DNA from: Mizuhopecten yessoensis
Lineage: Eukaryota
Assembly: GCF_002113885.1 (NCBI RefSeq)
Contig: NW_018404943.1
Coordinates: forward strand, 892,363 to 956,362
Length of the DNA: 64,000 bases
Direction: 5' to 3'
Shown one piece after another: positions 1,144 through 64,000 of the stretch. The notes beneath the pieces are model-generated. The model was not told where the DNA came from. It made no database searches and saw nothing but the letters and a program-made list of their open reading frames with translations. A program made the position numbers and the translations under genes. How positions within the stretch are numbered: the stretch's first letter is position 1; each line of letters opens with the position of its first letter.

Positions 1144-2245
1144 CAATAGTAAAAGACATAACTTAAAAATTTGATGACTCCTCTCAATTTTCAAACTTTT
1201 CGGATCCGCTATGAACCTATATCGTTTTAAAATTTATTTGCACCAATATGAAATACTTCAGTTTCCTTTTCAAAGTATTTATTATGGTCCATAAATGTTT
1301 GGTGTTTTAAACGCCCATGTGAATTTTGTGAAGGAGTGAAATGGCCGCGCCTTGACCCTTTTTACTCCGACATTGTTTTATATTGGAAGAGTGGACAGCT
1401 CTCGACATCTAATTATAAATGTGCCGGTAAGTAACAAATGACGTCTATAAGCTTCGAGACTGACTTAGGAAGTACATGTAGAACAAGGTCACAGAGGTCA
1501 GGGTTACAAGTTGATGTGAAGTCATGTGACCCTATTTGCAATACTGGCCTTAATGCAAAAACTTAACCAGTCACCAAAATGCTATACTTATCGAGGAATA
1601 TAAGCATTCCAAGTTACATGACCCTGACAGATCTGCAGTACTTAAGCCCATGACTCTTATGGTAAAAACTTAACCATTGTAAAACAGGTCAAGGCCAATA
1701 TTGTGAAGGTCACAGAAATGCTGCGAGACATGCCGTACTCAAGACACATAAATATGTGAAATTTAACCCAATTAACTTCCTAGCCGGCAGCAAAAATTAC
1801 ATTTCTGGTGGATGAAAAATCCCAGGTTGGAAAGATGAACGATATTTCTGTCAATAATCAGCGCTTCTATACTATCCAAGTAAAATTACCGTGAGAATAC
1901 CCCCACCCCTCGTTCTCCCCATTTTGGAGTAATCTAGGTAAATTTAATATATACCTTTACATTCCCTTTCATTTTGATGTCAGGAATAACTCAATAGTTT
2001 AAGTCATACCACAGTCTTCCCTCTTGTATCAGTCACTATATGTCAAAGGTTATGGCCACCGGTTCTATACATACAATGTAGATTTCAATCTCCTTTTGCC
2101 TTGCTCAAATTTTAAAAAGTCTAGATTCAATGCTCAATAACTGAAGGCAAGTGATTTTAGGCCCACCAGGTCTAAGTCATGCACAAACTCTAACATATAC
2201 AACAAATAAACAGACAAATTCTGAATATTTTCAACAGACTGGAAT

Positions 2246-2251
2246 TTTATT
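2246..2251 (-). terminator. Candidate poly(A) signal AATAAA for gene A, implying a ~1.75-kb 3' UTR
   Basis: tttatt on plus strand at the end of a long AU-rich stretch downstream of the stop; other signals are possible. Confidence 0.35.
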
Positions 2252-3074
2252 CCACAATTTACAATATTTTCAACATCACAATAGTGAAATCTGTAAATTG
2301 TATAAAGTATTCATATTCAACATATATATATATGTCATTTGAGGAGTACAGTCATTTTTATGCCATTCCCAAACAGAATACATAAATTGCTTGTTAGGCT
2401 AAGCATAATTTACCTGTTTTTGAAAACAGCCAGAAGTACATGCACAAAATAAAGATTGCGAGATACATACAAATTCATTTACAAGATATATAGGTTTGCA
2501 ACCAAGGTCATTTAGGTATCTGGAAGGCCTTTGTCCTTGATCATGTGTGTCTCTCAATTACTGGTACCGAGTTTTCAAAATCTCAGTCAAGTGGTATGTA
2601 TTTTATTAACGTTCATGTATAGGTAGATATTTGTATAAAAATCTGTTTGTAACTGGGGTATATAAATTAAGTTAATGTCTCTATAAATACAGAAGTGCAA
2701 CAATAAAGGTGCAACCTTTTAAAGAATGTGTAGCATCTTGCACATTTTGTAGTATATATGAAATATTATGTACAAAAATAGTTTTCAAAATATGGAAATA
2801 ATGTTTTACAACTATCAACTTTTGTAAAAATGTATGGAATATATATATAGAAAACAAAAATATTATGATATGCAATACAAAGTTCCAATGTATATATTAT
2901 AATGCATCAGCAATTTCAACACATACCGGTAAATATAGTGATGTTAGATGTACAATAGTGTCCGCCAAATAGTTTCCGTAAAATCTTGGCTGAACCATAT
3001 GGATGTATGAGCACTAAGCACATGATATAAATGTTTAAAGTATACTTATTGCACTTTAATCTCCTATCAGTCAT

Positions 3075-3425
3075 CATCCTCGATATCCAGGGGTTAATAC
3101 TCTCACTTGCGCTCTCTGCACCCCTGGAATATGTCATAGGCACAAAGACAGCTGTTTGATTGGTCTCCGGTAAAAAAACACCTGACCAATTGCTAGGCTG
3201 ATACCTGTCCCTTGAAGGTTACAAAGGGGCCACACCCAACTTCAAAGTCAGTCAATTTTTACCGTTACACACCGTGATATTCTTTTGATGTACATCAAAG
3301 GATCAAACTAGTCTTTTTGTCTCATCAACAGGGTGGCACACACTGAGCCTTCAATTTTGCTAGGACGTCATATACCAGGGGTGCAGAGAGCGAAACTGAG
3401 AGTAACCCCTGGAGTATTAAGGATG
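3075..3425. mobile_element. MITE with ~60-bp imperfect TIRs in the predicted gene A 3' UTR
   Basis: CATCCT..CCAGGGGTTA..CGCTCTCTGCACCCCTGG versus CCAGGGGTGCAGAGAGCG..TAACCCCTGG..AGGATG. Confidence 0.6.
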
Positions 3426-3849
3426 TTGTCACATGTAGACACCATTATGTATCCTCCTCAACGATAGCATCGGACAATGTCCATGTCAGAGATGTCAAGA
3501 GTTCCTGAGAGGACTAGCAATATGTTCAGTGATGGACTGTATTGTCACATGGTTAAACATTTCAGGAACATATACTTTTACAATGCATTTCGATTCAACT
3601 TAGAATCTAACATTATAGCCTCTGTTTTTCCCCATAGTGATATGATTTTTAGAACAAGATTTGCTCATTCAAGTTCCAGTTTTGATAATAATTCCAGTTA
3701 AGGCTGCAGTTTTCCTGTCAGTAAATGACAGTTTTTTTCTAATACAAGTACATTTAAGTTTCAACTGTGCTGATGACTTTGGTAAATATGTTGAAAGATT
3801 CATATGGTGCTTATATTAAGACCATTCAGATATTTATGGTACTGATCAA

Positions 3850-3932
3850 CCCTTTCACCACTGTGGACCATAATGGACTCGTCCAGATCAATGCATGGTA
3901 GAGTTTACTAAAGTTACATAGGGGTGAAAGGG
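3850..3932. mobile_element. Second copy of the 83-bp mini-MITE, opposite orientation, in the predicted gene A 3' UTR
   Basis: Same TIRs; interior is a reverse-complement match to 8095-8177. Confidence 0.72.
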
Positions 3933-3994
3933 TTAATTACATTCAGATGTTGATGATACAATGTTATGTGTAGACTCTCAGCACATGTAAATGT

Positions 3995-4347
3995 TCATGG
4001 TGCTGGTATAGACTCCTGGTAGCCTAAACCCTGGGACCCTGACACACGAGAAAAGCCGTAATTCGGGCCCAAACCTTCAGATGAATACAGCGAGCTTGGA
4101 CGTTGAAGATATCTTGGGCGGTACCTCTTCTGAGCAATAAGCTTAACTCCCATAATCACAAAACCAATAAATACAGCAACAAACACAACACCAATTAAAC
4201 TTCCAATCAAAATTGTCATCTGGACTCGGGTCAGACCAGACTCCTCCTCCACTGCCCCAGGGTTGGGTGTGGTCTGTCGAACAGTTTCATGATATCTTTT
4301 TGTGTTGAGCCGTTCTTCCTTTTCCTTAAAGCCAGGAACTATGTCAT
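3995..4347 (-). CDS. Gene A last coding exon: juxtamembrane stalk, TM helix and ~49-aa cytoplasmic tail
   Basis: ttgcag acceptor in frame with ORF 3995-4252; [23 protein letters not shown] followed by basic [11 protein letters not shown]. Confidence 0.85.
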
Positions 4348-7300
4348 CTGCAAGTTGTGAAGAGAAAAAATAAATGATTTTGACTTTTTTAAAGAAAATG
4401 TGAACAGCTCTTATCTACAACAGGTGTAAGAATGTTGTCAAGGAGATCAGTTGGACCAAGATTAAAGATTTAATATCATCATTATTAATATCATATTCTA
4501 TAATATTGGCCTTCAATTTGAAACTGCAATAAAACCAATGTTCTGCATTAAAATTACTGGGTAATAGTGTATAAAGTTTTGACAAGCATCATTACTATAT
4601 GAGTAGAATAATAAACATTCAGTTAAACAGATTAACTGGAAATTTTAGGGTAATTTACAAAGCAATTCCAATTAAGAATAATGATGGTAAGGAAGAATAT
4701 TAATTTAATCAGAAAGGCAAAGAAGGCTCTTCAGTACTTATTGATTTTTTCTTGGTTTTTTTTCTCCAGTATGTGTCTCTAATGTCTTTGAGGTAAGAAC
4801 TTTTTACCTAAAAATGCCTCATTGTCCGGTTTTAAGAGCTTTCCTCTTGCTCCCTCAAACATGAGGCAGTGATAAGATCCATAAGTGTTGATGCAGACCT
4901 GTGTGCCCACTCGTCCTCCACAAACACTGTCCCTACTTTCACATTCATTGATATCTGCAGAAATACAAATGAACAAACTCTAAAACCAATGCCATTAAGC
5001 CACAAAGAGATTTTACCTCATTATAATATATATGTATACTTACTACACATTGAGCTATGATTTCAAAAAGCTATAAACATGTTCTCTCTACACACAGAAG
5101 AGTAGGGGGTCAAAAACCTAGTTATACATGTCCCCATTCACAAACCATTGATCTGACCTGTTAAATTAAACTCAGCACTGCTACCCGACATAGATATACT
5201 GTACTTTCCACTAATGTTTTGTCCCCCGTAGATATATTCCATATTGAGGTTGTGATCTTACAAACTGCATTCTCCCCTGAGTTGGGACCTCACAAACTGC
5301 TTCCTCCCCTGAGTTGTGACCTCACAAACTGCATTCTCCCCCGAGTTGTGACCCCACAAACTGCTTGCTCCCCGAGTTGTGACCTCACAAACTGCTTTCT
5401 CCCCGAGTTGTGACCTCACAAACTGCTTTATCCCCGAGTTGTGACCTCACAAACTGCTTTCTCCCCGAGTTGTGAGCTCACAAACTGCTTTCTCCCCTGA
5501 GTTGTGACCTCACAAACTGCTTTCTCCCCTGAGTTGGGACCTCACAAACTGCATTCTCCCCCGAGTTGTGACCTCACAGACTGGTTTCTCCCCTGAGTTG
5601 TGAGTTGTGACCTCACAACCAACTGTATTTTCCTCCAAGTCCTGACCTCACAAAGATATACTGCATTCTCCCTTTTGTTGTAACCTCACATGAAAATTGC
5701 ATTCTCTCCTCAATTATGGCCTCACAAAGATTACTGTATTTCCCCTAAAATATGGCCTCACAAAGATTACTGTATTTCCTTTACAATATGACCTCACAAA
5801 GACATAGCACACTCTCTCCTGAGTTGTGACTCACCAAGCTATACATTTATACAAAGTAATATGTATAAATGGATCGACAGAAAGATAAAAAGATTTTATC
5901 AAAATTAAAGTGATACTCTTATAAACAGTACTTAGCACTTTGTAGATGACTACATAAAAGTGGACATTTTTCACTGTGCGTAAATGTGCACGCTATTCAC
6001 ATTGAATAAATTAGTGCATGTATACATAGACAATTACATATAGATTATAGATATATACAGTGTTTGGTTTGGTTTTGGTTAGTATTGTTTAACGTCCTAT
6101 CAACAGCTATGGTCATTTAAGGACGGCCTCCCCTGTGTGCAAGATGCAAGCGTGTAGTGTATGCGTTTGTGTTTTGGGCTGCGATATGTTCGTGATTGTC
6201 TCCTTGTGATAGCGGGGAACTGATGCCGAATATATAGTGCTACCTCACTGAAACATACTGCCGAAGACACCCAGCAGGACACCCCACCCGGTCACTGCGA
6301 ACCAGTCGTCCCACTCTTAAAATGCTGAGCGTTAAGCAGGAGTAGAAACTACCATTTTTACAGACTGGTATGTCTCGGCCAGGGGACAGAACCCAAATCC
6401 TTCCTCACAGGGACGAACGCTCAACTAAAGGCCAAAAGTGAGGCATTGTCAAGGGAGACATTAGAGATACAGTGTAGCATATATTGAGCTAGAGACCATT
6501 GCCGACATGAAATTCTCCCCATCACAATCAGCTGAAGGATCGAGTCACAATGCAAGCATTTCCACTATAACTGTAATGAATGATTGTCTATAAACATATG
6601 TTCCTATTCCGTCTTTGCGTATTGAAGAGTTATCTTCTCTTGGTAGCAGGTATTGATTGTTACGTCACTTGTTTGTGAGAATAACGTAATCAATTTTTGA
6701 GAAAACGACGTTATTTTCTCACACAGACCATTGACGTAACAATCAATACCTGCTCCCAAGAGAAGATAACTCTGCAATACGCAAAGACGGAATAGGGAAC
6801 GTAATAATTGAACTTGTAAGTCACTCTTTTCCAAGCTTTCGGGCTTAGCCCTTCGTCAGGGATCAAATGTCAACATGTTTGTCAAGATGGATGTGACATA
6901 TAGGTCCAGTGACATTTGATCCCTGACGAAGGGCTAAGTCCGAAAGCTTGGAAAAGAGTGACTTACAAGTTCGTTAATGTAATGAATGACATAATTGAAG
7001 CTATATAAGGATCCAGCAACAACTATAATGCTGATTACCTGAACAAGTGTGACCATCAATGTTGAGGGTAAATCCTGCATTACAAATGCACCGATAAAAA
7101 CCTACTACGTTGGTACAGATCTGATCACATGGTCCCAACTCATTACATTCGTCAATGTCCGAACAGGTGACGCCATCTTGTTGTAGTCGGAACCCGAAGA
7201 AGCAGCCACAATGAAAGGCCCCGAATGTGTCCACACATAGCTGGGTACAGTTGCCTCTGTTAGAGGTCAGACAATGGTTGATGACTGCAATGATCAATGA

Positions 7301-10300
7301 TATATACAGTAGCGATATCTAGGAATGAAACTCCTGATTACAGTGGAGCCACAGCAAATGTGTTCCGATTATGAGATCAAAATACCTTAAACGCTTATGG
7401 TTTTCAAAACATGACACCTTGTTTAATTACACTCGAAACTTATATTTGAGATTATCCTGCCGTGTTATTACATTTTACTGGTGACCCATATTTAGGACGG
7501 TGTAACGAAGTTTGTGTTTAAGGGTAACTGTTGCCTAAAAAGCTGGTTACCACTAAATAAGACATATATACAAAATCGCATTGATAAAAATATGATATGA
7601 TCTGAGACACATGTTTTTATAATTATAATTATGCAATATTTAAAAATTTCATTAATACATTGGATACATTTTTGTTTACCTTTGGTAGTACAATGTACAT
7701 GTACCTGGTTGCTATCTATGAATCATTTTTTTTCTGCTGTTAAATTAACATTACAAAAACCCAGACAACATTTGAAACTGATGGCTCATTTGAGACTGTT
7801 TTATTTTTACGTCAGACTTATATTTGAGACTTCAGATTGAACATATCCGGGGCAATTAAAAAAGCCACTGTTGAAAGCAAAATCTTTTCTGCGAGATAAA
7901 ATACCAACCTGGATGCTGTGGACCGGTTTCACCTGAAGTAAGGAAATTACATTAGTGCATTGGACACTTGATAAATCAGTATTAACAACAAATGAGAAAA
8001 AGACAATCTATGAGTTTGGCGACACATTTCTATCTATATTGTACTATACATACAATGCTTGTAATATCAGCATACTGTGATCTGTGAAATTTAACCCTTT
8101 CACCCCTATGTAACTTTAGTGAACTCTACCATGCATTGATTTTGGCGAGTCCATTATGGTTCACAGTGGTGAAAGGGTTAAGGATCCCTGGCCCTAAGCA
8201 GGTAAAACAATGGAGAATTCCATTGTTTTACATAGTGTCACCACCTTTTTATTTTGTTTCCGATATAAAAGTAGCAGGTCTAAGGCCAGATGATTACCAT
8301 CGACTTGGTAAACAGATAATTGCGAAGTCTGTTAGAGAGAGCCTGTTTCATGTAAGGAGGTGTAGGTTTTAAACCCAGAGAGGCCCTTTTCTAAACACTT
8401 TCTTCAGGTTGGTAGGTATGGATTATGAAAAGTTCTTTTTTTGTACTGTCACCTTCATCAGACAAGTGACCAGTGAAGCGTATGTACCCAAAGGTGTAAA
8501 ATATGTACGAGTTGTCCACAAAATCGATGTTGATTTCGGCTACGCTGTAAGCGTATGTACAATAAATGTTATGTATGCACCGAAATTACTCGATTCAGCT
8601 ACGCTTTGTTTAAGCGCTCTGGTCATTTGTCTGATGAAGGTGACAGTGTACATATCTTACTAGTCATCGAAACGTCACATAGAAAATTTTATTGGTTGTG
8701 TAAAAAGAACTTTTCATTATTCAGATAGGCCTTGTTTATGCAATTATGTTAAAACATCTGCAGCTATATAATAATGTCTTCCATCAAATCCAACGTACGT
8801 CTGTAGAATATTCTGTAGTTATGGGTCTCTTTTCAGAAATAATTTAATACAGCTATAGCCATGTGAGCAAACAAAAAACACTTCCAATGCATAAGGAGAG
8901 TTTTTGAGTGAAGAATTATATTTTCTAACCATATCTGTTACATAGCAATGTGGAGCTTGCTTAGCTGCTTCTGTATCCCCACAAATGGTTAAATCTTACC
9001 TACAGCTCCAGTATACCCCTGTGGTCCCATTGGTCCAGTGCTTCCGAAACCTGTATTCCCAACTACACCTGTCGGTCCTATTGGACCAGTATGACCTGTC
9101 CATCCTATTGGTCCAGTATTTCCTTGTGGTCCTGTATTCCCAACAAAACCTGTAGGTCCCATTGGACCAGAATATCCTGTCCATCCTATTGGTCCAGTGT
9201 TTCCCTGTGGGCCCGTATTTCCTACCACACCTGTAGGTCCTATTGGGCCAGTATGTCCTGTCAATCCTATTGGTCCTGTGTTTCCCTGTGGTCCTGTATT
9301 ACCAACAACACCTGTGGGTCCTACTGGTCCAATACCTCCGGTCAAACCTATAGCTCCTGTGTTTCCCTGTGGTCCTGTATTACCAACAACACCTGTAGGT
9401 CCTATTGGTCCAGTACTTCCTGTCAAACCTATAGCTCCTGTGTTTCCCTGTGGTCCTGTATTACCAACAACACCTGTAGGTCCTATTGGTCCAGTACTTC
9501 CTGTCAAACCTATAGCTCCTGTGTTTCCCTGTGGTCCTGTATTACCAACAACACCTGTAGGTCCTATTGGTCCAGTACTTCCTGTCAAACCTATAGCTCC
9601 TGTGTTTCCCTGTGGTCCTGTATTACCAACAACACCTGTAGGTCCTATTGGTCCAGTACTTCCTGTCAAACCTATAGCTCCTGTGTTTCCCTGTGGTCCT
9701 GTATTACCAACAACACCTGTAGGTCCTATTGGTCCAGTACTTCCTGTCAAACCTATAGCTCCTGTGTTTCCCTGTGGTCCTGTATTACCAACAACACCTG
9801 TAGGTCCTATTGGTCCAGTACTTCCTGTCAAACCTTTAGCTCCTGTGTTTCCCTGTGGTCCTGTATTACCAACAACACCTGTAGGTCCTATTGGTCCAGT
9901 ACTTCCTGTTAATCCTAAGGCTCCAGTGTTTCCCTGTGGTCCTGTATTACCAACAACACCTGTAGGTCCTATTGGTCCAGTACTTCCTGTCAAACCTATA
10001 GCTCCTGTGTTTCCCTGTGGTCCTGTATTACCAACAACACCTGTAGGTCCTATTGGTCCAGTACTTCCTGTTAATCCTAAGGCTCCAGTGTTTCCCTGTG
10101 GTCCTGTATTACCAACAACACCTGTAGGTCCTATTGGTCCAGTACTTCCTGTCAAACCTATAGCTCCTGTGTTTCCCTGTGGTCCTGTATTCCCAACAAC
10201 ACCTGTAGGTCCTATTGGTCCAGTACTTCCTGTTAATCCTAAGGCTCCAGTGTTTCCCTGTGGTCCTGTATTACCAACAACACCTGTAGGTCCTATTGGT

Positions 10301-13300
10301 CCAGTACTTCCTGTCAAACCTATAGCTCCTGTGTTTCCCTGTGGTCCTGTATTCCCAACAACACCTGTAGGTCCTATTGGTCCAGTACTTCCTGTTAATC
10401 CTAAGGCTCCAGTGTTTCCCTGTGGTCCTGTATTACCAACAACACCTGTAGGTCCTATTGGTCCAGTACTTCCTGTCAAACCTATAGCTCCTGTGTTTCC
10501 CTGTGGTCCTGTATTACCAACAACACCTGTAGGTCCTATTGGTCCAGTACTTCCTGTCAAACCTATAGCTCCAGTGTTTCCCTGTGGTCCTGTATTACCA
10601 ACAACACCTGTAGGTCCTATTGGTCCAGTACTTCCTGTCAAACCTATAGCTCCTGTGTTTCCCTGTGGTCCTGTATTACCAACAACACCTGTAGGTCCTA
10701 TTGGTCCAGTACTTCCTGTCAAACCTATAGCTCCAGTGTTTCCCTGTGGTCCTGTATTACCAACAACACCTGTAGGTCCTATTGGTCCAGTACTTCCTGT
10801 CAAACCTATAGCTCCTGTGTTTCCCTGTGGTCCTGTATTACCAACAACACCTGTAGGTCCTATTGGTCCAGTACTTCCTGTCAAACCTATAGCTCCAGTG
10901 TTTCCCTGTGGTCCTGTATTACCAACAACACCTGTAGGTCCTATTGGTCCAGTACTTCCTGTCAAACCTATAGCTCCTGTGTTTCCCTGTGGTCCTGTAT
11001 TACCAACAACACCTGTAGGTCCTATTGGTCCAGTACTTCCTGTCAAACCTATAGCTCCAGTGTTTCCCTGTGGTCCTGTATTACCAACAACACCTGTAGG
11101 TCCTATTGGTCCAGTACTTCCTGTCAAACCTATAGCTCCTGTGTTTCCCTGTGGTCCTGTATTACCAACAACACCTGTAGGTCCTATTGGTCCAGTACTT
11201 CCTGTCAAACCTATAGCTCCTGTGTTTCCCTGTGGTCCTGTATTACCAACAACACCTGTAGGTCCTATTGGTCCAGTACTTCCTGTCAAACCTATAGCTC
11301 CTGTGTTTCCCTGTGGTCCTGTATTACCAACAACACCTGTAGGTCCTATTGGTCCAGTACTTCCTGTCAAACCTATAGCTCCTGTGTTTCCCTGTGGTCC
11401 TGTATTACCAACAACACCTGTAGGTCCTATTGGTCCAGTACTTCCTGTCAAACCTATAGCTCCTGTGTTTCCCTGTGGTCCTGTATTACCAACAACACCT
11501 GTAGGTCCTATTGGTCCAGTACTTCCTGTCAAACCTATAGCTCCTGTGTTTCCCTGTGGTCCTGTATTACCAACAACACCTGTGGGTCCTACTGGTCCAA
11601 TACCTCCGGTCAAACCTATAGCTCCTGTGTTTCCCTGTGGTCCTGTATTACCAACACCACCTGTAGGTCCTATTGGTCCAGTACTTCCTGTTAATCCTAA
11701 GGCTCCTGTGTTTCCCTGTGGTCCTGTATTACCAACAACACCTGTAGGTCCTAGTGGTCCAGTACTTCCTGTCAACCCTATAGCTCCTCTGTTTCCCTGT
11801 GGTCCTGTATTACCAACAACACCTGTAGGTCCTATTGGTCCAGTACTTCCTGTTAATCCTAAGGCTCCTGTGTTTCCCTGTGGTCCTGTATTACCAACAA
11901 CACCTGTGGATCCTGTATTACCAACAACACCTGTAGGTCCTATTGGCCCAGTCCTTCCTGTCAAACCTATAGCTCCTGTGTTTCCCTGTGGTCCTGTATT
12001 CCCAGTAAAACCTGTAGGTCCTATTGGTCCAGTACTTCCTGTCAAACCTATAGCTCCTGTGTTTCCCTGTGGTCCTGTATTCCCAACAACACCTGTTGGT
12101 CCTACTGGTCCAGTACTTCCTGTTAATCCTAAGGCTCCAGTGTTTCCCTGTGGTCCTGTATTACCAACAACACCTGTAGGTCCTATTGGTCCAGTACTTC
12201 CTGTCAAACCTATAGCTCCTGTGTTTCCCTGTTGTCCTGTTTTTCCAGCAACACCTGTGGGTCCTACTGGTCCAGTACTTCCTATTAATCCTAAGGCTCC
12301 AGTGTTTCCCTGTGGCCCAGTACTTCCTGTTAATCCTATGGCTCCAGTATTTCCCTGTGGCCCAGTACTTCCTGTTAAACCTAAGGGTCCTGTTATTCCT
12401 TGTGGCCCAGTACTTCCTGTTAATCCTAAGGCTCCCGTTATTCCTTGTGGACCAGTACTTCCTGTTAATCCTAAGGCTCCCGTTATTCCTTGTGGCCCAG
12501 TACTTCCTGTCAGTCCTGTGGCTCCTGTGTTTCCTTGGGTAATTGTTGGTATTGTCACCTGTGCTGTGGTTACTATCTGTGTTGTGGCTACATGGGGTGT
12601 CGTCACTGGTGTTGTGGTTACCGGTGTTGTCACTTGTGTTGTGGTTACCTGTGTTGTTGTCACCTGTGTTGAGATATTAGGTGCAGTTGTAGGACCAGCA
12701 GTCGTTGTAGGTACAACTACAATAAACAGAAAATAGGAGTAAGACAATGACAATTGGAAAATTTCACAATTGCATATGGTCTGAACAGATGAATCATGAA
12801 AAATTTTACACAGGAAAATTGTCATGTTTGAATTACTGAACTTCAATGTATCCGTTCCTTACATGGTTCTAAATCTGCCTGGACAGAGAAGAAAAAGGGT
12901 TTGATGAAGAATTCTAGCTGTGAGCCCACTGCCAGTGTACCGTCATTAGCATAGGTCAACAGTGTACCGTTGTTTGGTGTGGGAGAGTAGCTAAAGCTCA
13001 TTGGTATATAGGCCACATCTGTGCTCCAGCCTAGGAAAATTCCAGCACCAGTTGTCGGAGCATTGTTGATGACAATCTGAGACAAAGCAGAAATTATGTA
13101 GTGTATACTGTGAAACTTTCACCCTACTCCAGTAAAACTTTCACCCTACTCCAGTTTTCACCCTACTCCAGTAAATCCCTTCACCCCACTCCAGTAAATC
13201 CCTTCACCCTACTCCAGTAAAACTTTCACCCTACTCCAGTAAAACTTTCATCCTACTCCAATAAAACTTTCACCCTACTCCAGCAAAACTTTCACCCTAC

Positions 13301-16300
13301 TCCAGTTTACACCCTACTCCAGCAAAACTTTCACCCTACTCCAGTAAAACTTTCACGCTACTCCAGCAAAACTTTTATCCTATTCCAGTTTTCACCCTAC
13401 TCCAGCAAAACTTTCACCCTACTCCAGCAAAACTTTCATCCTACTCCAGTTTTCACCCTACTCAAGTAAAAATTTCATCCTACTCCAGCAAAACTTTCAC
13501 CCTACTCCAGTTTTCACCCTACTCCAGCAAAACTTTCATCCTACTCCAGTTTTCACCCTACTCCAGCAAAACTTTCACCCTACTCCAGCAAAACTTTCAC
13601 CCTACTCCAGCAAAACTTTCACCCTACTCCAGCAAAACTTTCACCCTACTCCAGCAAAACTTTCACCCTACTCCAGCAAAACTTTCACCCTACTCCAGCA
13701 AAACTTTCATCCTACTCCAGTTTTCACATTACTCCAGCAAAACTTTCACCCTACTCCAGTAAAACGTTCACCCTATTCCAGTAAAACTTTCATCCTACTC
13801 CAGCAAAACTTTCATCCTACTCCAGTTTTCACCCTACTCCAGCAAAACTTTCATCCTACTCCAGCAAAACTTGCACCCTACTCCAGTAAAACTTTCACCC
13901 TACTCCAGCAAAACTTTCACCCTACTCCAGTAAAATGTATTTTCGTGCAGTGTTAATTTCACCCTACACATTTGATTACTGTGTTTCTTATATTGCTTAC
14001 TGCTGCAATGACCAATTCACTCTCATTACGGAGGGCGAAAAAGGCGAAAAGTTAAACTGCGACAAAAATTCCCGTTATACAGTATTACCTCAGAATGTAA
14101 AATAAGTTGACAATTCAACTTGGTAATGTTTTAGTTGATTCAAAACATCATGAAAACATTCCATACATTAAGTAATTCAATCTAATTAAAATTATATCTT
14201 CACATCGCTCCCGTTTTCTGATATGTCGCGTTGAAGGATCTACAACGCGACATATCAGAAAACGGGAGCGATGTGAAGATATAATTTTAATTAGATTGTA
14301 AGTAATTTATTATGCAGTGACTTCAAATAACATGTATTTTATTACCATCTGCTATATGAAATGCACAAATATTCTATCAAGTTTCAAAAGTTCTTCTTGA
14401 AAGTTGCAAGCACATCATGAGAGGCTTATCTCACAAAATTTTACTCAACATTTTTCCATCCTCATGATTAATTGATGCAAAGTTTTTTTCATCATCTCAT
14501 ATTTTTTTTGTTTTCACATCGTTGGTAAGTCATGGTCTGAGAAAAACATTACAATTTCTGTGTGCGAGTTATTCATAACTTGCATATTTCCAAAGAATTG
14601 AATTTTCAAGGAAAATGTTAATTTAAGGAGGCTCCACCCTTTCGCAATTAGCCATCAGAATTCAATGAAAGTTTCACATGATAGTTATGTCACTATGCAG
14701 AGACGATTTTATGAAAATCTAAGCATTCTGATAAACTGGGGATTTATTTGTAAAAAATACTGAAAAATTGATTTTTTGTCAAATTCAACACTTTCACATT
14801 TTTTGAGCGTGTGGCATTGTTCAAAACTATTACAACAATAAAATAATGAAAAGAAACGTTGCTAATCAACCCTACAAATATTTTATTTATCATAAAATAT
14901 CTACAACATGTTACAAAAAGGGTTTCTTTATTGAAACTATATGGATAAAAGTTACTAAATGCAAGCCAAAATCAAACAGGAAACATAATTACATACAAAA
15001 AGAGTGAAAAATGGAACCAAATACACACAAAGTCTTTATAATTAATTTATTTTACATTTTACAATTATTTTGATCCTGATGAGAGTTGTCTACCTTGAAA
15101 ATAATCGGAACTTTTTGCAGAGGGATAGAATTTATACAATGACACTTATTTTATTTAATACACCAGAAAAATGACGGAAATAAATTAAATTACTATATTT
15201 ATTTTTCAATTTACTGTTCTTTTATGGAACAAAATTACTCTCAATCATGTACACTTTGGACATCCTTCCATAGCCTGCTTACGCACGGTATATTAACATG
15301 TCAGGTACATAAGTAACCATAGGCTTTCGCATGGTATGCCGTTATTACGTGCACGCACATGCACTTGCATTTTATAGGGATCTTGATATTTTACAAACCA
15401 CTTTTTTCACAGAGTTATTGTAATTGCATTTGTGAACCGATTTATCTGACAGAGCCCAACTCGCTCGCCAACAAAAGTCGTAGCGACCAAGAGCTTGTGA
15501 ACTACTGTTAGCACGTGATACATACAGGTGAGGTCGGTAAACAAAACACATCACTCTGCATTCCATGCGCCTCATATACAACCTTCTTGAAGTCGTCTGA
15601 TCGTATGTCAGTGTTTTCCCGTGAGTTGATTAATGTCTTTGTATCATAAGCTTTATTTCTGAAGTACATGTGATTACAAATTTCCAAGTTAAGTCTAGAT
15701 ATCGGGTGTTGACATATCACGTCACGCACATGTACTATTGTTTACCCAGTGTTACTATAATTTACACTTCGATAATGGAATGCCCGATACGCAATACGGA
15801 AATGACGACACGAAAATACGACAAGAAAAAAATGTGTATTACGAAGGGTGGAAACTCCTTAAGGAATTTTTATGTTCTGTAAACTTGTGAAGCCTTTAGC
15901 ACTTTTCAAGGTCACAACATAAGTTCAAGAACTGTTAAGGTCATAGATCTGCTAGATCTCTGTCTTGAATCATTTGTTCAATATCCCTAAAAATTAAGGC
16001 TTCATATCACGCAACCATCACTGTTGTGAGATATGGAAGTTGACATCTGTGGCGTTGACCTTTGATCTTGAACTAAAGCAATATTGCGAAACAAAATGTA
16101 AAAAAAATCTGTCCTGTACTTCTTGGAAAATAGCAATCACAGACTTAAGATGGACACCTGGTAGCCATCTTGTTCTTGACATTCACAAATAAATGGTGCT
16201 GCACCACAAGGACTCAAAGTAACCTGTAAACAAAATCTGAAAGACTGACATTCTGACTTGTAATATACTTTCTGAGAAATTACAAGAATTTTAACAGATG

Positions 16301-19300
16301 GACAGAATGATTGCATGGACAAAAATCAATTTGAAAAGTCAACAATGTGATGATGACAGAGGGTTAAAAATTCTTTTGCATCAAATTTGGTTACAATTAA
16401 CTACCTGGTGAATACTTGGTTGCACCAGGTTACACTTAACTACCTGGTGAATACTTGGTTGGCACCAGGGTACAATTAACTACCTAGTGAATACTTGGTT
16501 GGCACCAGGTTACAATTATCTACCTGGTGAATACTTGGTTGGCATCAGGTTACAATTAACTACCTGGTGAATACTTGGTTGCACCAAGTTACAATTAACT
16601 ACCTGGTGAATACTTGGGTGGCGCCAGGTTACAATTAACTACAGTGTACCTGGTGAATCCTTGGTTGGCACCAGGTTACAATTAATTATCTGGTGAATAC
16701 TTGGTTGCACCAGGTTACCATTAAGTACCTGGTGAATACTTGGTTGGCACCAGGTTTCAATTTACTACCTGGTGAATACTTGGTTGGCACCAGGTTTCAA
16801 TTTACTACCTGGTGAATACTTGGTTGGCACCATGTTACAATTAACTACCTGGTGAGTACTTGGGTGGCACCAGATGACAATTAACTACCTGGTGAATACG
16901 TGGTTGGCACCAGGTTACAATTAACTACCTGGTGAGTACTTGGGTGGCACCAGATAACAATTAACTCCCTGGTGAATACTTGGTTGCACCAGGTTACCAT
17001 TAAGTACCTGGTGAATACTTGGTTGGCACCATGTTAAAATTAACTACCTAGTGCATACTTGGTTGCACCAGGTTACAATTAACTACCCGGTGAATACTTG
17101 GTTGGCACCAGGTTACAATTAGCTACCTAGTGAATACTTGGTTGCACCAGGGTACAATTAACTACCTGGTGAATACTTGGTTGCACCAAGTTACAATTAA
17201 CTACCTGGTGAATACTTGGGTGGCACCAGGATACAATTAACTACCTGGTGAGTACTTGGGTGGCACCAGACTGACATTCTGACTTGTAATATACTTTCTG
17301 AGAAATTACAAGAATTTTAACAGATGGACAGAATGATTGCATGGACAAGAATCAATTTGAAAAGTCAACAATGTGATGATGACAGAGGGTTAAAAATTCT
17401 TTTGCATCAAATTTGGTTACATTTAACTACCTGGTGAATACTTGGTTGCACCAAGTTACAATTAACTACCTGGTGAATACTTGGGTGGCACCAGGATACA
17501 ATTAACTACCTGGTGAGTACTTGGGTGGCACCAGATGACAATTAACCACCTGGTGAATACTTGGACCTGGTGAATACTTGGTTGGCACCAGGTTTCAATT
17601 TACTACCTGGTGAATACTTGGTTGGCACCAGGGTACAATTAACTACCTGGTGAATACTTGGGTGGCACCAGGTTACAATTAACTACCTGGTGAGTACTTG
17701 GGTGGCACCAGATAACAATTAACTACCTGGTGAATACTTGGTTGCACCAGGTTACAATTAACTACCTGGTGAATATTTGGTTGGCACCAGGTTACAATTA
17801 ACTACCTGGTGAGTACTTGGGTGGCACCAGATGACAATTAACTACCTGGTGAATACGTGGTTGGCACCAGGTTACAATTAACTACCTGGTGAGTACTTGG
17901 GTGGCACCAGATGACAATTAACCACCTGGTGAATACTTGGGTGGCACCAAGATCCTCTTTAGGTTTCTTTGTTGAGAGCACTTTTCTGTCCCTAGACCTA
18001 CATACAAATAGAATCACCTAAGCTCTGCTATTTCTAGGTCATCAGGAAAAGGCTTCTCAAGATTGCTCCTTTTAGGGGTCCATCCTCATCCTTGGTGAGA
18101 ACTAAAGACCCTAATTATAAATGATCTCAGCTCTTATGAGCTAATGAAAAAGCAGACAGCAAGACTTCCTTAAAGCATTTCTGGACATTTTCCCTACCGT
18201 ATGCCTGCCTTGAGTTCCTGGGAAGGTGGCTCTTTGTTTGAACAGCAGTCTGTACCTGAAGGCGGATATTCTCTCCCACAGAAGGATGTTACCAAGGGAT
18301 GGCTGTCTGAAATTCTGATGGATGTAGACATGGACGGCAGTCAGGATAAAGTTACTGGGGAGTTCATTGACATGGTTGATGAGGGCTGTAGACAGACCGA
18401 GGGTGTCTGTGTAGTAAAGGGGCCTCTGGACAACTGGAAACCCCAACATAACAGGTTGACCTACAACTTAATAAAAATGGCATTTGAGAAATATCTTTCT
18501 AGGGATATTACAACTCTCGCCAGCAATATTTCAGTTTTAGATTTTTGGGGTGTTGAAAAATTGAAACAACCACTAGAATAAGAATATAATTCCTAATATG
18601 AATTAATGCATTGAAAATATATTAAATAAACAAGACACATGTCCCTGTTTAAGTTCTTTGTTTTAATTACATATCTTTATTACAGAGTATTCTTTTATGT
18701 CCACAAATATTCTTGGAGGTTAAATGTTGTGATACAGTATTAATATTCTCTAAGTATTTAATTTTGCACCATCTTTGGTGACTGTGAACATAGCGAAATA
18801 AATTATCCCGCTATTACAAGCAGAGTAATCAAAACGGAGATTTTAAGAACATCCTACTAAGTTTAGTTCAGACCCGTATTAATTGTCTTTCTTGAAAGTT
18901 TGAATCGCCCAACACCACCTTAAGTTTGTCCTAAATTGCAGTGTTATAATGAATTCTGGACTAGCAAAATCAATATCACTCAGCACTCACTTGCTCATCA
19001 TTTAAAAACTCTGTTCTTTCCCTATCAATGCTAAATTTAACATAAGGCTGGAATAAATGAGTCTTTGAGTAAGGTTCTGTCGTGTTGTCCAATGCTCCCT
19101 TAGAACACCGTTTACTACAACTGCCTTGAGTGATTGCCAGATTATGTTGAAACCATCTCCCGGCCTCCTCTTTCATATGTTGTCTTTAAATATTTACATT
19201 TATTCCCTAATTCTAGGGATGTGTGTTAAGCTGGCATCCAAAACAAATATTATAATGCATTGTATTGGATAGCTTGCCAAACTTTAGAAAGTTGCTTTGC

Positions 19301-20583
19301 AAATGTGTTGTACTTTAATATACATACTTTTGATATGTAATGACATCTTTGTTGAGTTTTGTTCTGATAGTACTTGGAAAAAATCACTGAAAATACCACT
19401 AAGTAGTGTAAGTATTGAAAATTCAATATATTGTTCGAGCCATAGATGCCATACAGTTAACTTAGTTAAGGTTACAACATTTCATTTCCTTTGTCCAGGA
19501 ATGCTCGATTCTGAATTAAGTCAAATTTCCGTAGCCATTCTAAACAAGAGGCTCAGAGGGCATGTATTGCTCACCTGGATATGAAAGTAATCATGGCAAA
19601 AAATTCTCCAAATAAGATGCAAAGGAATGGGCCAGACCCCAAGGACAATCCCTGTATCCTATCTGTATTAGATTTTTCATGCCCTGCAATTTTATGTATG
19701 GTTATGGGGTGGGGATCTCAACTGTTTCCAAGGTGTGACTCAGAAACTAGATCCCTAGGGTTGTGGCCAGACCCCATGATCAATTATAATATCATGACTG
19801 CATTCGTCTCTTTAATGCACATGTTTCCAGGATTGCCCAGGGGTCTGGCCCACCCTTGGAGACATAGTCCTTGGGTCATAACTTTGAAACGGTTGAGATC
19901 CCCACCCCAAAACTGTATATACAAATGCTTGGCATAAAGAGACGAATGCAGTCATGATATAGGAATTGATTCCAGAGTCTGCTCAACCCTTGGAGACTTG
20001 ACCCCTGGGTCATAACTTTGAAACGGCTAAGATCCCCACCCAAAAACTATATATACAATTGTTGGGCATAAAGAGACGAATGCAGTCATGATATTAGAAT
20101 TGACCCCAGGGTCTGTCCTACCCTCACAGACTTAACCTCTGGGTCATCACTTTGAAACAGTTGAGATCCCCACCCCAAAACTGTATAAACAAATGCTGGG
20201 CATAAAAATATCTTCATTCTCAGCAATTGTATATAGGGTTATAGGGTGGAGATCTCAACCATTTCCAAGCAATAAACTATTTTTGGCCCCACCCTTTAGC
20301 CAAGGGGGTCAGTCCCACTACTTGTACAATTTGAATCCCTGGCTCCCATGAATGCTTCTGATCAAATATGATTGATATCCAGTGTATAGTTCTCCAGGTG
20401 AGCTAACGAGAAGTCCTTTTAGCGAAAAAGATGATGATACACAAAACGATGTTTTGTTTTGTGATGACATGAACTCATCGACACTTTGTACACGGTTGTA
20501 CTGTTACCTGTAGTTCGGGTTGCATTTTGTAGTATAACTGCTAAAATCACAAGGACGCACCAGGGTCCCTTATAAGCCTCCAT
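3995..20583 (-). CDS. Gene A (whole model): type I transmembrane Thr-rich collagen-like protein with EGF domains, 8 coding exons, 1679 aa
   Basis: Join on minus strand: 20583-20508, 18460-18198, 13076-12863, 12716-9000, 7932-7909, 7284-7039, 4954-4808, 4347-3995. All introns are GT..AG, phases match (1,0,1,1,1,1,1), and the total of 5040 nt gives an open frame ending in TGA. Domain order: signal peptide, N-domain, Thr stalk, Gly-X-Y, EGFx3, TM, tail. Confidence 0.82.
4808..4954 (-). CDS. Gene A exon 7: truncated (4-Cys) calcium-binding EGF-like domain plus linker
   Basis: DINEC...C...[10 protein letters not shown]; ctgcag acceptor, TAG|GTAAAA donor, 147 nt, phase 1-1. Confidence 0.85.
5245..5835. 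repeat. ~31-33-bp minisatellite with a degenerate right flank
   Basis: GAGTTGTGACCTCACAAACTGCTTTCTCCCC(T). Confidence 0.9.
6064..6466 (-). mobile_element. tRNA-derived SINE (MetaSINE-like), near full length
   Basis: Degenerate tRNA-like head, (CCAAA)n tail, flanked by a 9-bp direct repeat ATACAGTGT (6055-6063 and 6467-6475); second copy at 31713. Confidence 0.8.
6830..6862 (-). ncRNA. Minimal hammerhead ribozyme motif, sense to gene A pre-mRNA
   Basis: Minus strand reads TCC-CTGACGA-A-GGGC-TAA-GCCC-GAAA-GCTT-GGA. Confidence 0.5.
6920..6952 (+). ncRNA. Minimal hammerhead ribozyme motif
   Basis: TCC-CTGACGA-A-GGGC-TAA-GTCC-GAAA-GCTT-GGA with palindromic AGCT stem III. Confidence 0.5.
7039..7284 (-). 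CDS. Gene A exon 6: two EGF-like domains, the second of calcium-binding type
   Basis: Two 6-Cys units; DIDEC...[10 protein letters not shown] cbEGF consensus; ttgcag acceptor, CAG|GTAATC donor, 246 nt. Confidence 0.9.
7909..7932 (-). CDS. Gene A exon 5: 24-nt microexon (G)ETGPQHP ending the triple helix
   Basis: ttacttcag acceptor, CAG|GTTGGT donor, phase 1-1; continues the Gly-X-Y register (GAV-GET-GPQ). Confidence 0.65.
8095..8177. mobile_element. 83-bp piggyBac-like mini-MITE
   Basis: TTAA|CCCTTTCACC ... GGTGAAAGGG|TTAA. Confidence 0.75.
8628..8679 (+). ncRNA. Minimal type I hammerhead ribozyme motif (Penelope-like element type)
   Basis: TGT-CTGATGA-A-GGTGAC-loop-GTCATC-GAAA-CGTC-ACA: stem I, core, stem II, palindromic ACGT stem III, GUC cleavage triplet; partial inverted copy at ~8443-8475. 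Confidence 0.65.
9000..12716 (-). CDS. Gene A exon 4: Thr-rich mucin-like stalk plus ~1,178 aa Gly-X-Y
   Basis: ttgtag acceptor, TAG|GTAAGA donor, 3717 nt, phase 1-1; Gly at every third residue from 12534 with one G-F-G imperfection near the end. Confidence 0.92.
9200..12300 (-). repeat. Coding 81-bp (27-aa) tandem repeat, roughly 38 copies
   Basis: [27 protein letters not shown], near-identical at DNA level; 45-bp units follow at ~12300-12510. Confidence 0.95.
12863..13076 (-). CDS. Gene A exon 3: second half of N-terminal domain ([17 protein letters not shown]...FSVQADLEP)
   Basis: tctcag acceptor, GTAAGG donor, phase 0 to 1; shares LGW, NxTLLxY and FFxxPxxFS motifs with gene B exon 50481-50706. 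Confidence 0.85.
13112..13935. repeat. 22-bp minisatellite, apparently inside a TACTGT...ACAGTA MITE (13106-14084)
   Basis: AAAACTTTCACCCTACTCCAG(C/T) units with shorter variants. Confidence 0.9.
14178..14298. mobile_element. 121-bp foldback MITE with 9-bp target duplication (Mutator-like)
   Basis: Perfect 56-bp inverted arms, 9-nt loop, TAAGTAATT on both flanks. Confidence 0.8.
14627..15858. mobile_element. Non-autonomous DNA transposon with TTAA target duplication (Kolobok-like termini)
   Basis: TTAA|GGAGGCTCCACCCTT ... AAGGGTGGAAACTCC|TTAA; interior homologous to 33923-35114. Confidence 0.75.
16390..17950. repeat. 39-40-bp minisatellite split by a duplicated unique flank
   Basis: GGTTACAATTAACTACCTGGTGAATACTTGGTTGGCACCA; ~16242-16390 is repeated at ~17268-17418. 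Confidence 0.92.
18198..18460 (-). CDS. Gene A exon 2: first half of N-terminal globular domain ([17 protein letters not shown]...FPGTQGRHT)
   Basis: ttgtag acceptor, ACG|GTAGGG donor, phase 1 to 0; aligns by eye with gene B exon 48298-48563. Confidence 0.8.
19541..20405. mobile_element. Non-autonomous Helentron/Helitron-like (HINE-type) element with internal ~135-bp tandem units
   Basis: Starts AACAAGAGG..GCTCACCTGG and ends CCAGGTGAGCTAA (subterminal inverted repeat); related starts at ~20632 and ~30275. Confidence 0.55.
20508..20583 (-). CDS. Gene A coding exon 1: signal peptide [25 protein letters not shown]
   Basis: ATG directly after an acceptor-like tttcag, hydrophobic core, phase-1 donor CAG|GTAACA matching the next exon. 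Confidence 0.72.
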
Positions 20584-29893: not shown

Positions 29894-30274
29894 CACGGAT
29901 TAAAAAACACGCATAAATATGCAGTTTTGCTTAATGCACTTTTTATCTTGCTCAAAATGAACCCATACCTGAAAAAGCACTGATATATTTCATTCATGAA
30001 ACAGTCTTTTTTGTAGTCTAACAAACGTACGAAAATGTCGTATGCAAATGAGGCCACATCTCCTCGCCGTTTTTCTCCCGAAGAGCCAAGGAGACGTTCT
30101 TATATTGATAAACAGTGTTTTCAATGAAACGTAAACCTTGTAATGCAATGAACTTTCCAATTTTCACCAATTTTAAACAGAACAAAATGAGAAATAACTT
30201 ACCATCAACCAAAACCGATATAAGACAGCAGAAAAAAAATAATAACAGATTCTATATTATAACTAAATAAATAT

Positions 30275-30810: not shown

Positions 30811-31489
30811 ACTAGTGTTGGGAATCGCTTGTAAGTTCATAATCGATCATCACTTTCAATCAAGTGACTATTGATAGACTGTAAACATGTGTATCACAGT
30901 CGTCGCTGATTTCAACAGATTCGACCGATCCGCGATAGGCTCCGAAATGAATCCCCGTGGATGTTTATCTATTCTGATCTTGCAAATTCATGGTTATGAT
31001 TATTACCTGTAAACTATAGCTAGTATCCCCTTGTATCCCGGTCTTCTTTTTGAGAACAGATCTTCAGTGCAATCCTTTCGTCCACCCGTATCTGACAGAC
31101 CCTCCCGTTAGGCCTACGTTCTGATATCAATTTTTCTCTGCACGTGCATGATGTCATAGCATATCCGGTGCGAACTGTTTGCTTGACGGATTATGAATCG
31201 ACACAGTCCGACTCTAGTTCAGATACTAATGTCGAAGATGGTAAACCTAACTGTTTAGTCTCTAAAATGGAATTTGAAAACAAAATAGATTCTATATCAG
31301 ATGACTTTTTTATATGTAGATTTTATATAAAACGTTAAAAAAAAAAAAAAAAAAAAAACTTTGTCAAAGTCAACGTGTTGAACTTGAATATTTAATATTG
31401 AAGGAGGCTCCACCATTTCGCAATTAATGTTTATGTCATTATGTAGATATGATTTTATGAAAATCTAAGCATTCCGATGATAATATATC

Positions 31490-40193: not shown

Positions 40194-40470
40194 GTGTGTG
40201 TGTGTGTGTGTGTGTGTGTGNNNNNNNNNNNNNNNNNNNNNNNNNNNNNNNNNNNNNNNNNNNNNNNNNNNNNNNNNNNNNNNNNNNNNNNNNNNNNNNN
40301 NNNNNNNNNNNNNNNNNNNNNNNNNNNNNNNNNNNNNNNNNNNNNNNNNNNNNNNNNNNNNNNNNNNNNNNNNNNNNNNNNNNNNNNNNNNNNNNNNNNN
40401 NNNNNNNNNNNNNNNNNNNNNNNNNNNNNNNNNNNNNNNNNNNNNNNNNNNNNNNNNNNNNNNNNNNNNN
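40194..40470. other. (GT)n microsatellite running into a 250-N assembly gap
   Basis: N run at 40221-40470. Confidence 0.98.
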
Positions 40471-41744: not shown

Positions 41745-41896
41745 GTATTGCAACATCCAATCAGATTATACAACGCAAAGTTCGTGCAGCCGATGGGTAC
41801 AAAAGGGCGCGTGCGGCGTTTGTCACCAGTCCAGCCGACGTCCCTGCTCACCAGTGTCTACCGGCGTGGCTCAGTGTAGAAGCCCAAAAGGTAAGA
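41745..41896 (+). promoter_or_regulatory. Candidate promoter and non-coding first exon of gene B
   Basis: Locally GC/CpG-rich island with TGACGT (CRE-like), CCAAT and GCGCGTGCG, ending in a strong donor AAG|GTAAGA at 41890/41891; the ATG exon has an acceptor that needs an upstream exon. Confidence 0.4.
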
Positions 41897-48066: not shown

Positions 48067-63537
<15,471 letters not shown>

Positions 63538-64000
63538 GTGAGGATACTGAATGCTTTATTAAGTCCCTACCAGTGCTAAAGGGAATATATAGATTTGCAC
63601 TCTCACAATAAGTTATGTCGCCATCATGGGCATATTTTATTTACTCTTAATATCGTTACATGATATCAAGTCTTCTGGTAACTCGATATACAGTGATTAT
63701 TTTTGGAAGTAGTGCCCTTACAGAACTAAAAATATTTATTTGGCCCCCCGTTTCCAATGTCTGCATAGCACAAATATCGGACCCTTTTGTATGCCGAGTG
63801 ACACTAGTGGTAGTAAGAAGCGAGTCTTTTTGGTACGCGCCCGCATGTTGTGTCGCACAACACGATGCTTCCAAGCACAGCTGTATTTAACATGTAATGT
63901 CCAGGATCGGAGTAGCAAGGAAATCTTAAAACCAAAATCACATGGGCGTTTGTCTCGTGTCGACATAGTTTGGTTAAATGGATTGCATAATTTATCATCA

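Follow-up and report, generated by a model that had tools for sequence, protein, structure and literature searches.

The minus strand of the 64,000-nt stretch of Mizuhopecten yessoensis DNA analyzed here (contig NW_018404943.1; hereafter the window, which is intron-rich, with a GC content of 0.40 and 251 N) carries a gene in which a long collagen domain is followed by EGF modules and a C-terminal transmembrane (TM) helix. A spliced transcript that joins the collagen repeat, the EGF modules and the TM segment exists. On balance, we favor reading the predicted product as a type I cell-surface collagen stalk, the chains of which would be aligned by their membrane anchors and likely be stabilized by glycosylated threonine instead of hydroxyproline.

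Gene Model and Spliced Transcript

Eight exons on the minus strand join into a single open frame of 1,679 codons plus stop. All introns are of the GT-AG type and preserve the frame, with phases 1, 0, 1, 1, 1, 1 and 1 in order. From the N- to the C-terminus, the encoded protein comprises a signal-like start, a head, a threonine-rich linker, the collagen domain, the EGF modules, a further linker, the TM helix, a basic segment and a tail. A preliminary description of the locus had been confined to the segment 3995-7932, which holds four of the exons (7932-7909, 7284-7039, 4954-4808 and 4347-3995); these continue the reading frame of the collagen exon 12716-9000. The parts of the gene are given below; X1 and X2 denote sequencing runs, P0002, P0003 and P0006 denote database matches, and the paralog is a second collagen gene in the window, gene B.

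20508..20583, minus strand: coding part of exon 1; ATG and signal-peptide-like segment covering residues 1-25, with an AG immediately before the ATG, a GT donor and phase 0-1
18198..18460, minus strand: exon 2; N-terminal half of the head domain, predicted to be beta-rich, of no known family, homologous to the paralog exon 48298-48563 and to P0002, P0003 and P0006
12863..13076, minus strand: exon 3; C-terminal half of the head domain; tblastn from the paralog E 2e-5, score 85 versus a shuffle maximum of 47
12535..12716, minus strand: 5' part of exon 4; threonine-rich, mucin-like linker with 26 Thr across residues 185-245
9000..12534, minus strand: collagen domain of exon 4; Gly-X-Y triplets, the 3' end (9000-9200) being present on an RNA contig
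7909..7932, minus strand: exon 5; micro-exon of 24 nt that closes the collagen region, both of its joints occurring in X1 as well as in X2
7039..7284, minus strand: exon 6; EGF1 and the calcium-binding-type EGF2, with 6 Cys each, on RNA contigs
4808..4954, minus strand: exon 7; EGF-like module of the calcium-binding type, cut short to 4 Cys, and the beginning of the juxtamembrane linker, on RNA contigs
3995..4347, minus strand: coding part of exon 8; juxtamembrane linker, TM helix, basic stop-transfer segment, 45-residue tail and stop
2336..3994, minus strand: probable 3' untranslated region of about 1.65 kb; contig pieces 2336-3877 (X2) and 2385-3875 (X1), split at repeats

Minus-strand AATAAA motifs lie 3' of the coding region at 2607 and 2251. 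A plus-strand frame of 1,213 codons over the collagen exon was rejected as an antisense shadow of the repeat.

The connection between the collagen exon and the membrane-proximal exons was examined at the level of RNA by comparing four of the 24 listed sequencing runs (X1, X2, X6 and X21) with positions 2000-9200. The four joints 9000/7932, 7909/7284, 7039/4954 and 4808/4347 are present both in X1 (study P1) and in X2 (study P2), and in each of these runs the joints leading from collagen to TM lie within one contig, at the depth of that contig. In the contig alignments the joints appear as 7930/8998, 7284/7909 and 4954/7039, after which a skip of 460 nt leads on to the TM exon: The 1,159-nt contig of X2 (record 9), for example, is composed of the pieces 8998-9200, 7039-7284, 4811-4954 and 3910-4350, which correspond to the 3' end of the collagen exon and the EGF and TM exons. 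No run is listed on record as RNA; the RNA nature of the contigs in X1 and X2 follows from their spliced joints. Moreover, nine RNA-like contig sets contain 0.27-0.34 of the sequence words of 3400-9300, of which the exonic share is 0.28. The collagen exon and the EGF/TM exons thus share a transcript, being joined on one contig in two of the four runs, and do not belong to separate transcripts, as the preliminary description had allowed for. A non-canonical intron at 4351-4810 was considered and rejected: The 460-nt skip represents the canonical intron 4348-4807, and a single A>G exchange at 4810 explains the shift by three bases. Compared with the window, the RNA contigs carry coding variants that affect residue 1562 (position 4810, deduced from the shift of the joint, in X1 and X2), residue 1498 (7086; X1 and X2) and residue 1390 (9101; X2), and three further variants are synonymous.

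EGF Modules, Membrane Helix and Predicted Orientation

With Pfam, six of the eight exons (all but the signal and the 24-nt exon) were scanned, and these returned collagen and EGF families only, with no COLFI domain. Exon 6 matches FXa_inhibition, cEGF and EGF_CA (E 3e-16 to 3e-11), and the best matches of its EGF pair among solved structures are EGF pairs of the LRP2/LDLR family. Exon 7 matches EGF_CA with E 7e-07, covering profile positions 2-29 of 43 only: The module has a calcium-type start and cysteines C1-C4 and lacks the C5-C6 pair. The three EGF domains originally proposed to follow the collagen are therefore to be amended to two complete domains and a truncated third one with four cysteines. 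All 16 extracellular cysteines reside in the EGF modules, and consequently there is no cystine knot.

The TM helix (approximately 4219-4140, residues ~1606-1633 of 1,679) contains a GxxxG motif and constitutes the only 19-residue window of the entire protein with a Kyte-Doolittle hydropathy above 1.6, peaking at 2.88 at residue 1608. Acidic residues precede the helix and K/R residues follow it. As previously described, the helix is succeeded by a basic stop-transfer segment and a Tyr/Ser-rich tail, which the translated exon 8 confirms to be 45 residues long and also rich in proline. A glycosylphosphatidylinositol anchor was rejected, given the 45 polar residues after the helix. Given only one helix, located C-terminally, the uneven charges on its two sides and the location of the disulfide modules on its N-terminal side, the protein very probably adopts a type I topology (N-out, C-in), as predicted from its sequence. 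The proposal of a layout opposite to that of the type II membrane collagens is thereby upheld, and the collagen-TM splicing of the RNA adds to its support. The same cannot be said of a sensor role, which had been suggested alongside those of spacer and tether: The tail contains neither a YxxPhi nor an NPxY motif, and a sensor function is unsupported, while a role as spacer or tether would be plausible.

Upstream of the helix, the juxtamembrane linker of 61 residues includes the motif RLNTKR (4312-4295, minus strand), at which shedding by a convertase had been speculated to occur. The furin consensus of the MACIT family is RxxR (PMC4678570). Within all 1,679 residues no such RxxR site was found, and among 20,000 shuffles of the 61-residue segment a [KR]R pair arose in 56% and the stricter [KR]xxx[KR]R pattern in 9%. 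The motif is present, but given the missing RxxR and a [KR]R pair at chance level, convertase shedding is unsupported; shedding by other proteases, such as metalloproteases, is possible. These observations bear on a reading in which the membrane form is a biosynthetic precursor and the TM helix a disposable folding anchor, the ectodomain being cut within the linker and deposited in a shell, cuticle or adhesive matrix. Cleavage by another protease would accommodate such a fate, yet the sequence offers it neither a furin site nor a KR pair beyond chance, and the helix contains no cysteine and no lysine-rich cross-linking sites for fibril building. We consider such a precursor unlikely, though it is the most credible of the alternatives.

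The Collagen Domain and Its Threonine Chemistry

Exon 4 matches the Pfam collagen family with E 2e-166. Residues 246-1409 (1,164 residues) form 388 uninterrupted Gly-X-Y triplets, which are followed by a two-residue break and six more triplets. The 394 triplets correspond to a rod of 394 × 3 × 0.286 nm = 338 nm, in agreement with the earlier estimate of about 340 nm. The composition of the triplets is peculiar: Position Y is occupied by Thr in 216 of the 394 cases (55%), by Ile in 69, by Gln in 46, by Val in 44 and by Pro in none, and Pro occupies position X in 130 triplets. The main helix has four K+R residues, no aspartate and no acidic residues altogether. The collagen of gene B is of the same kind: Its portion within the window comprises at least 870 triplets, of which 790 follow one another without a break in a single 7.1-kb exon of non-repetitive DNA, and in this exon Y is Thr in 332 triplets and Pro in none, with more charges than in the minus-strand helix. 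As Pro is absent at Y, 4-hydroxyproline is unable to stabilize either helix, and as four basic residues face no acidic ones, salt bridges cannot stabilize the main helix. By analogy, glycosylated threonine is the likely substitute for hydroxyproline: The peptide (Gly-Pro-Thr)10 becomes triple-helical only after galactosylation (PMC11923368). The same source finds Thr triplets to be overrepresented in prokaryotic and viral collagens, not in eukaryotic ones.

Most of the helix consists of a tandem unit of 81 nt (27 residues), present in 35 copies that are 95% alike. Codon differences from the majority unit, counted among 38 repeat units, are synonymous in 60 and non-synonymous in 32 cases; the pattern that defined these units demanded Gly at every third place, so that their Gly constancy is not an independent observation, unlike that of the 388-triplet run. 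The copy number, and hence the rod length, may be variable or mis-assembled. At 9053-9200, the X2 contig loops back by 148 bases, separated by 14 intervening letters (162 nt, i.e., two 81-nt units), which represents either additional repeat units of that allele or a loop in the assembly graph and suggests a stalk-length polymorphism.

The same composition invites the question of whether the Gly-X-Y array forms a stable triple helix at all or instead a heavily O-glycosylated, mucin-like membrane chain, which could serve as glycocalyx, lubricant or anti-adhesive coat. The lack of Pro at Y, the near-absence of charged residues, the Thr content (214 of 1,164 residues), the adjoining 26-Thr linker and the C-terminal end all fit such a chain, membrane mucins likewise ending in EGF, TM and a short tail. 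A mucin, however, has no need for Gly at every third position, which is maintained across 388 triplets (790 in the paralog) while X and Y vary, nor for a restriction of Pro to position X (130 versus 0 at Y). For this reason, we regard the mucin-like chain as improbable.

The Head Domain and the Paralog

Residues 1-26 resemble a signal peptide: They contain a short hydrophobic core of 10 residues, a single basic residue and small residues at -3/-1, with predicted cleavage after residue 26. This was judged from hydropathy and the -1/-3 pattern; the 11-residue hydropathy reaches 3.3, and no 19-residue window exceeds 1.6, so that the segment is too short for a TM helix. The N-terminal signal peptide of the preliminary description thus has a probable counterpart at 20583-20508, which lies far outside the segment 3995-7932 to which it had been assigned and is connected to the collagen by the exon model. 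In this model, the signal peptide and a head of 158 residues (27-184, from exons 2 and 3), predicted to be beta-rich, would precede the collagen. A CpG-richer stretch at 30940-31260 (minus strand), with a minus-strand GT donor at ~31009 at its end, may be a first, non-coding exon of the gene.

The 5' exons find their counterpart in the paralog, which is arranged head-to-head with the minus-strand gene:

48067..63540, plus strand: gene B; signal-peptide exon (48067-48133), two head exons (48298-48563 and 50481-50706) with phases 1-0-1, then collagen exons

The heads of the two genes align with a score of 135, the best of 1,000 shuffles reaching 58; taken singly, exon 2 scores 66 against a shuffle maximum of 43, and the values for exon 3 are those listed above. 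Because gene B has the same signal-head-collagen plan, with the same exon order and phases, it supports the 5' exon model. A probable non-coding first exon of gene B lies near 41750-41891 (plus strand). That exons 1-3 derive from another transcript, or that another first exon gives the protein a different N-terminus, possibly with no head or cleavable signal, is very improbable: The 5' exons are indeed set apart by introns that measure 2.0 and 5.1 kb and contain large repeat arrays, and the RNA comparison began at the collagen exon, but every joint is GT-AG and keeps the frame, only 146 nt separate exon 3 from the collagen exon, and the paralog carries the same three exons, in phase and order, ahead of its collagen.

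Beyond the window, a HMMER search over 1.84 billion representatives gave five matches at E<=0.001 (P0001-P0005). P0002 and P0003 are genuine relatives of exon 2 (37-38% identity), encoded by short frames on contigs of about 1 kb, and P0006 is a cluster mate of P0002. The similarity of P0002 and P0003 to exon 2 stops at the position of its phase-0 donor, and we read them as the same exon in other animals. P0001, P0004 and P0005 were rejected, their scores adding up 6-16 short stretches of repetitive proteins. By sequence, the head thus appears to be a small family that is found in other organisms and lies outside Pfam, where the head exons gave nothing below E 0.28. Likewise, a PDB sequence search with the head alignment gave nothing below E 0.29, and the ESM Atlas gave no usable lead (best scores 0.82 and 0.88, low recognition). 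The first half of the head was modeled with seven beta strands at a predicted local distance difference test score (pLDDT) of 74; for this model, Foldseek found no match at E<=0.001 and VIA gave a best Z of 3.7. Several carbohydrate-binding beta-sandwiches, with Z 2.0-2.4, were at background level, and for a resemblance to DUF4082-type beta-sandwiches, which was also considered, Pfam gave no support. The second half, folded alone, reached a pLDDT of 37. In a direct comparison, exons 2 and 3 are not repeats of one another.

Proposed Assembly and Points Against It

Turning from the modules to their concerted action, we propose the following course for the type I stalk. The spliced RNA, of which the part from collagen to tail is present on one contig, would be translated into a protein with collagen, EGF modules, TM helix and tail. 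After cleavage of the signal peptide, the beta-rich head indicated by sequence and paralog would remain ahead of the collagen. In the membrane of the endoplasmic reticulum, the TM anchors with their GxxxG motifs might gather the three C-terminal ends, whereupon the helix could zip from the C- to the N-terminus. O-glycosylation of the threonines at 55% of the Y positions would then stabilize the helix. At the cell surface, a rod of up to ~340 nm on a calcium-stiffened EGF base would project the head far from the cell, and the stalk would link the cell with an outer matrix of the shell, periostracum or cuticle type, acting as a structural tether rather than a signaling receptor. Anchor-led assembly is the simplest reading because no C-propeptide, COLFI, NC1, cystine knot or spare cysteines are present. 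There is precedent for it: A TM segment can take the place of a C-propeptide (Bulleid, Dalley and Lees 1997, EMBO J 16:6694, as cited in PMC7015688 and PMC11304992). Type II membrane collagens fold from N to C, starting from juxtamembrane elements, and fibrillar collagens from C to N (PMC11304992). Alternatively, by analogy with the streptococcal Scl proteins (PMC8968730), nucleation from the N-terminus by the head is possible.

Several points weigh against the anchored, threonine-stabilized stalk. As for the RNA, X6 contributed unspliced fragments of 2000-9200 and no spliced product, and the raw RNA reads of X21, about 19% of which were read, gave none on the exons in 2000-9200; exons 1-3 and their joint to the collagen exon, upstream of this range, rest on splice phases and the paralog. 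As for the helix, Gly-Pro-Thr accounts for only 40 of the 394 triplets, most Thr occurring in GNT, GLT and GST, and stabilization of these three by sugars was not found in the literature examined (PMC11923368). The length of 338 nm, in turn, hangs on a tandem array of 95% identity. As for conservation, the C-terminus of gene B lies outside the window, the HMMER search yielded single-exon fragments only, so that conservation of the TM helix in relatives is unsupported, and a full-length homologue was not found: Word-index searches with exon 2, exon 8 and a five-row exon-2 alignment, which are weak evidence, were empty at E<=0.01. Finally, the triple helix, its glycosylation, the trimeric state, the binding partner and the tissue are all predicted or assumed.

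Relation to Known Collagens

The predicted protein shares features with several groups of collagens and coincides with none of them. Closest in domain content are the lophotrochozoan EGF-collagens of Lingula anatina and the pearl oyster, which combine collagen with EGF_CA, FXa_inhibition and cEGF and lack COLFI; the comparison was made by described domain content. Seventeen such genes are reported for Lingula, four of them represented in the shell proteome, and collagen with EGF_CA is also reported for the pearl oyster (Luo et al. 2015, PMC4595640). Supplementary Table 30 of that work counts 22, 20 and 19 Lingula proteins with collagen plus EGF_CA, FXa_inhibition and cEGF, respectively, and 7, 6 and 6 in the pearl oyster. 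A membrane anchor is not described in the portions of this source drawn upon: The word "transmembrane" does not occur in the main text and occurs five times in the supplement, never for collagens. The occurrence of EGF-collagens has been extended to sternaspid worms (PMC13425148, PMC13564323), again with no membrane anchor described in the portions drawn upon.

Among single-pass proteins with an extracellular collagen, the MACITs (XIII, XXIII, XXV and XVII, and COL-99 of C. elegans), ectodysplasin A, the colmedins and the class A scavenger receptors belong to type II without exception (PMC7848082). They have an N-terminal TM helix, interrupted or short collagen helices and N-to-C folding, with RxxR furin sites in XIII, XXIII and XXV (PMC7848082, PMC4678570, PMC11304992); the protein described here, in contrast, has a C-terminal TM helix, 388 uninterrupted triplets with one two-residue break and no RxxR. 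Furthermore, unlike scavenger receptors, colmedins and ectodysplasin, it has no SRCR, lectin, olfactomedin or TNF domain in the six exons scanned with Pfam. With fibrillar collagens it shares an uninterrupted helix of about 1,000 residues (here 1,164), but the collagen is spliced straight to EGF and TM exons with no COLFI, and Pro is found at none of the 394 Y positions. CCBE1 likewise combines collagen and calcium-binding EGF in one chain, but there the EGF precedes a short collagen, and the protein is secreted and has no TM helix.

The proposed nucleation of the helix from a C-terminal membrane anchor is shared with the procollagen-TM chimera of Bulleid et al., which is artificial and based on collagen of the hydroxyproline type. 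Analogs in overall design are the streptococcal proteins Scl1 and Scl2 and related Gram-positive collagen-like proteins, in which, as predicted here, a head lies outside on a stalk with a C-terminal anchor and without hydroxyproline, and in which Thr is the commonest Y residue (48%; PMC8968730). These are bacterial, cell-wall anchored, short and trimerized by the N-terminal V domain, and they lack EGF modules, introns and a cytoplasmic tail; the likeness is one of analogy, not homology. The cuticle collagen of the vent worm Riftia, which carries glycosylated Thr at Y and serves as the precedent among animals (Mann et al. 1996, cited in PMC11923368), resembles the present helix, by description, in having Thr over hydroxyproline at Y, but is secreted, unlike the membrane protein predicted here. 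Many holozoan collagens have predicted TM and/or signal sequences, the conserved ChCL, with an N-terminal TM, among them (Linden and King, bioRxiv 10.1101/2021.10.08.463732); type I cases outside animals could be found in this set. Further context is given in PMC12549020, PMC6337334 and PMC12403961. In the full-text literature searched, which omits most subscription journals, no account of a naturally occurring animal collagen with a type I membrane anchor was found; matches to "type I transmembrane collagen" were prostate-cancer papers on Endo180 or biomarkers. Unannotated gene models of a similar layout may well exist in databases.

The protein is best filed among the lophotrochozoan EGF-collagens, not the MACITs or fibrillar collagens. 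Its distinguishing marks, as deduced from the gene model, are the type I anchor, a threonine-rich helix predicted to be free of hydroxyproline and the unclassified head. The combination of collagen and EGF is already known in lophotrochozoans. As a tentative and more far-reaching proposal, which we would hesitate to call probable, the protein may be a natural animal type I TM collagen that founds a lophotrochozoan family, with an anchor in place of the C-propeptide, a 340-nm helix stabilized by glycosylated Thr without hydroxyproline and an undescribed head, that is, an animal counterpart of the bacterial "lollipop" collagens. Possibly, the EGF-collagens without COLFI that occur in the shells of brachiopods and molluscs conceal this type I plan. 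If true, a design opposite to that of the type II membrane collagens with their N-to-C folding would occur in animals, having previously been represented by an engineered chimera and by bacteria. It would further offer a test of whether a membrane anchor alone can register collagen chains in nature, and of whether an animal can maintain a very long triple helix without hydroxyproline by means of glycosylated Thr. For the shell EGF-collagens, which have no known trimerization domain, it predicts a C-terminal TM helix.

Further Features of the Window

Between the two collagen genes lie a 250-N assembly gap (40221-40470) and a frame of 697 codons with a YADD motif (37551-39644, plus strand), which resembles the reverse transcriptase part of a long interspersed nuclear element. 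Large minisatellite arrays occupy introns and the upstream region of the minus-strand gene (13113-13935, 16389-17949, 21300-29900, 32000-33570 and 35500-36900). The intron between exons 2 and 3 additionally contains a near-perfect inverted repeat (14179-14297) with arms of about 55 bases and a short loop.

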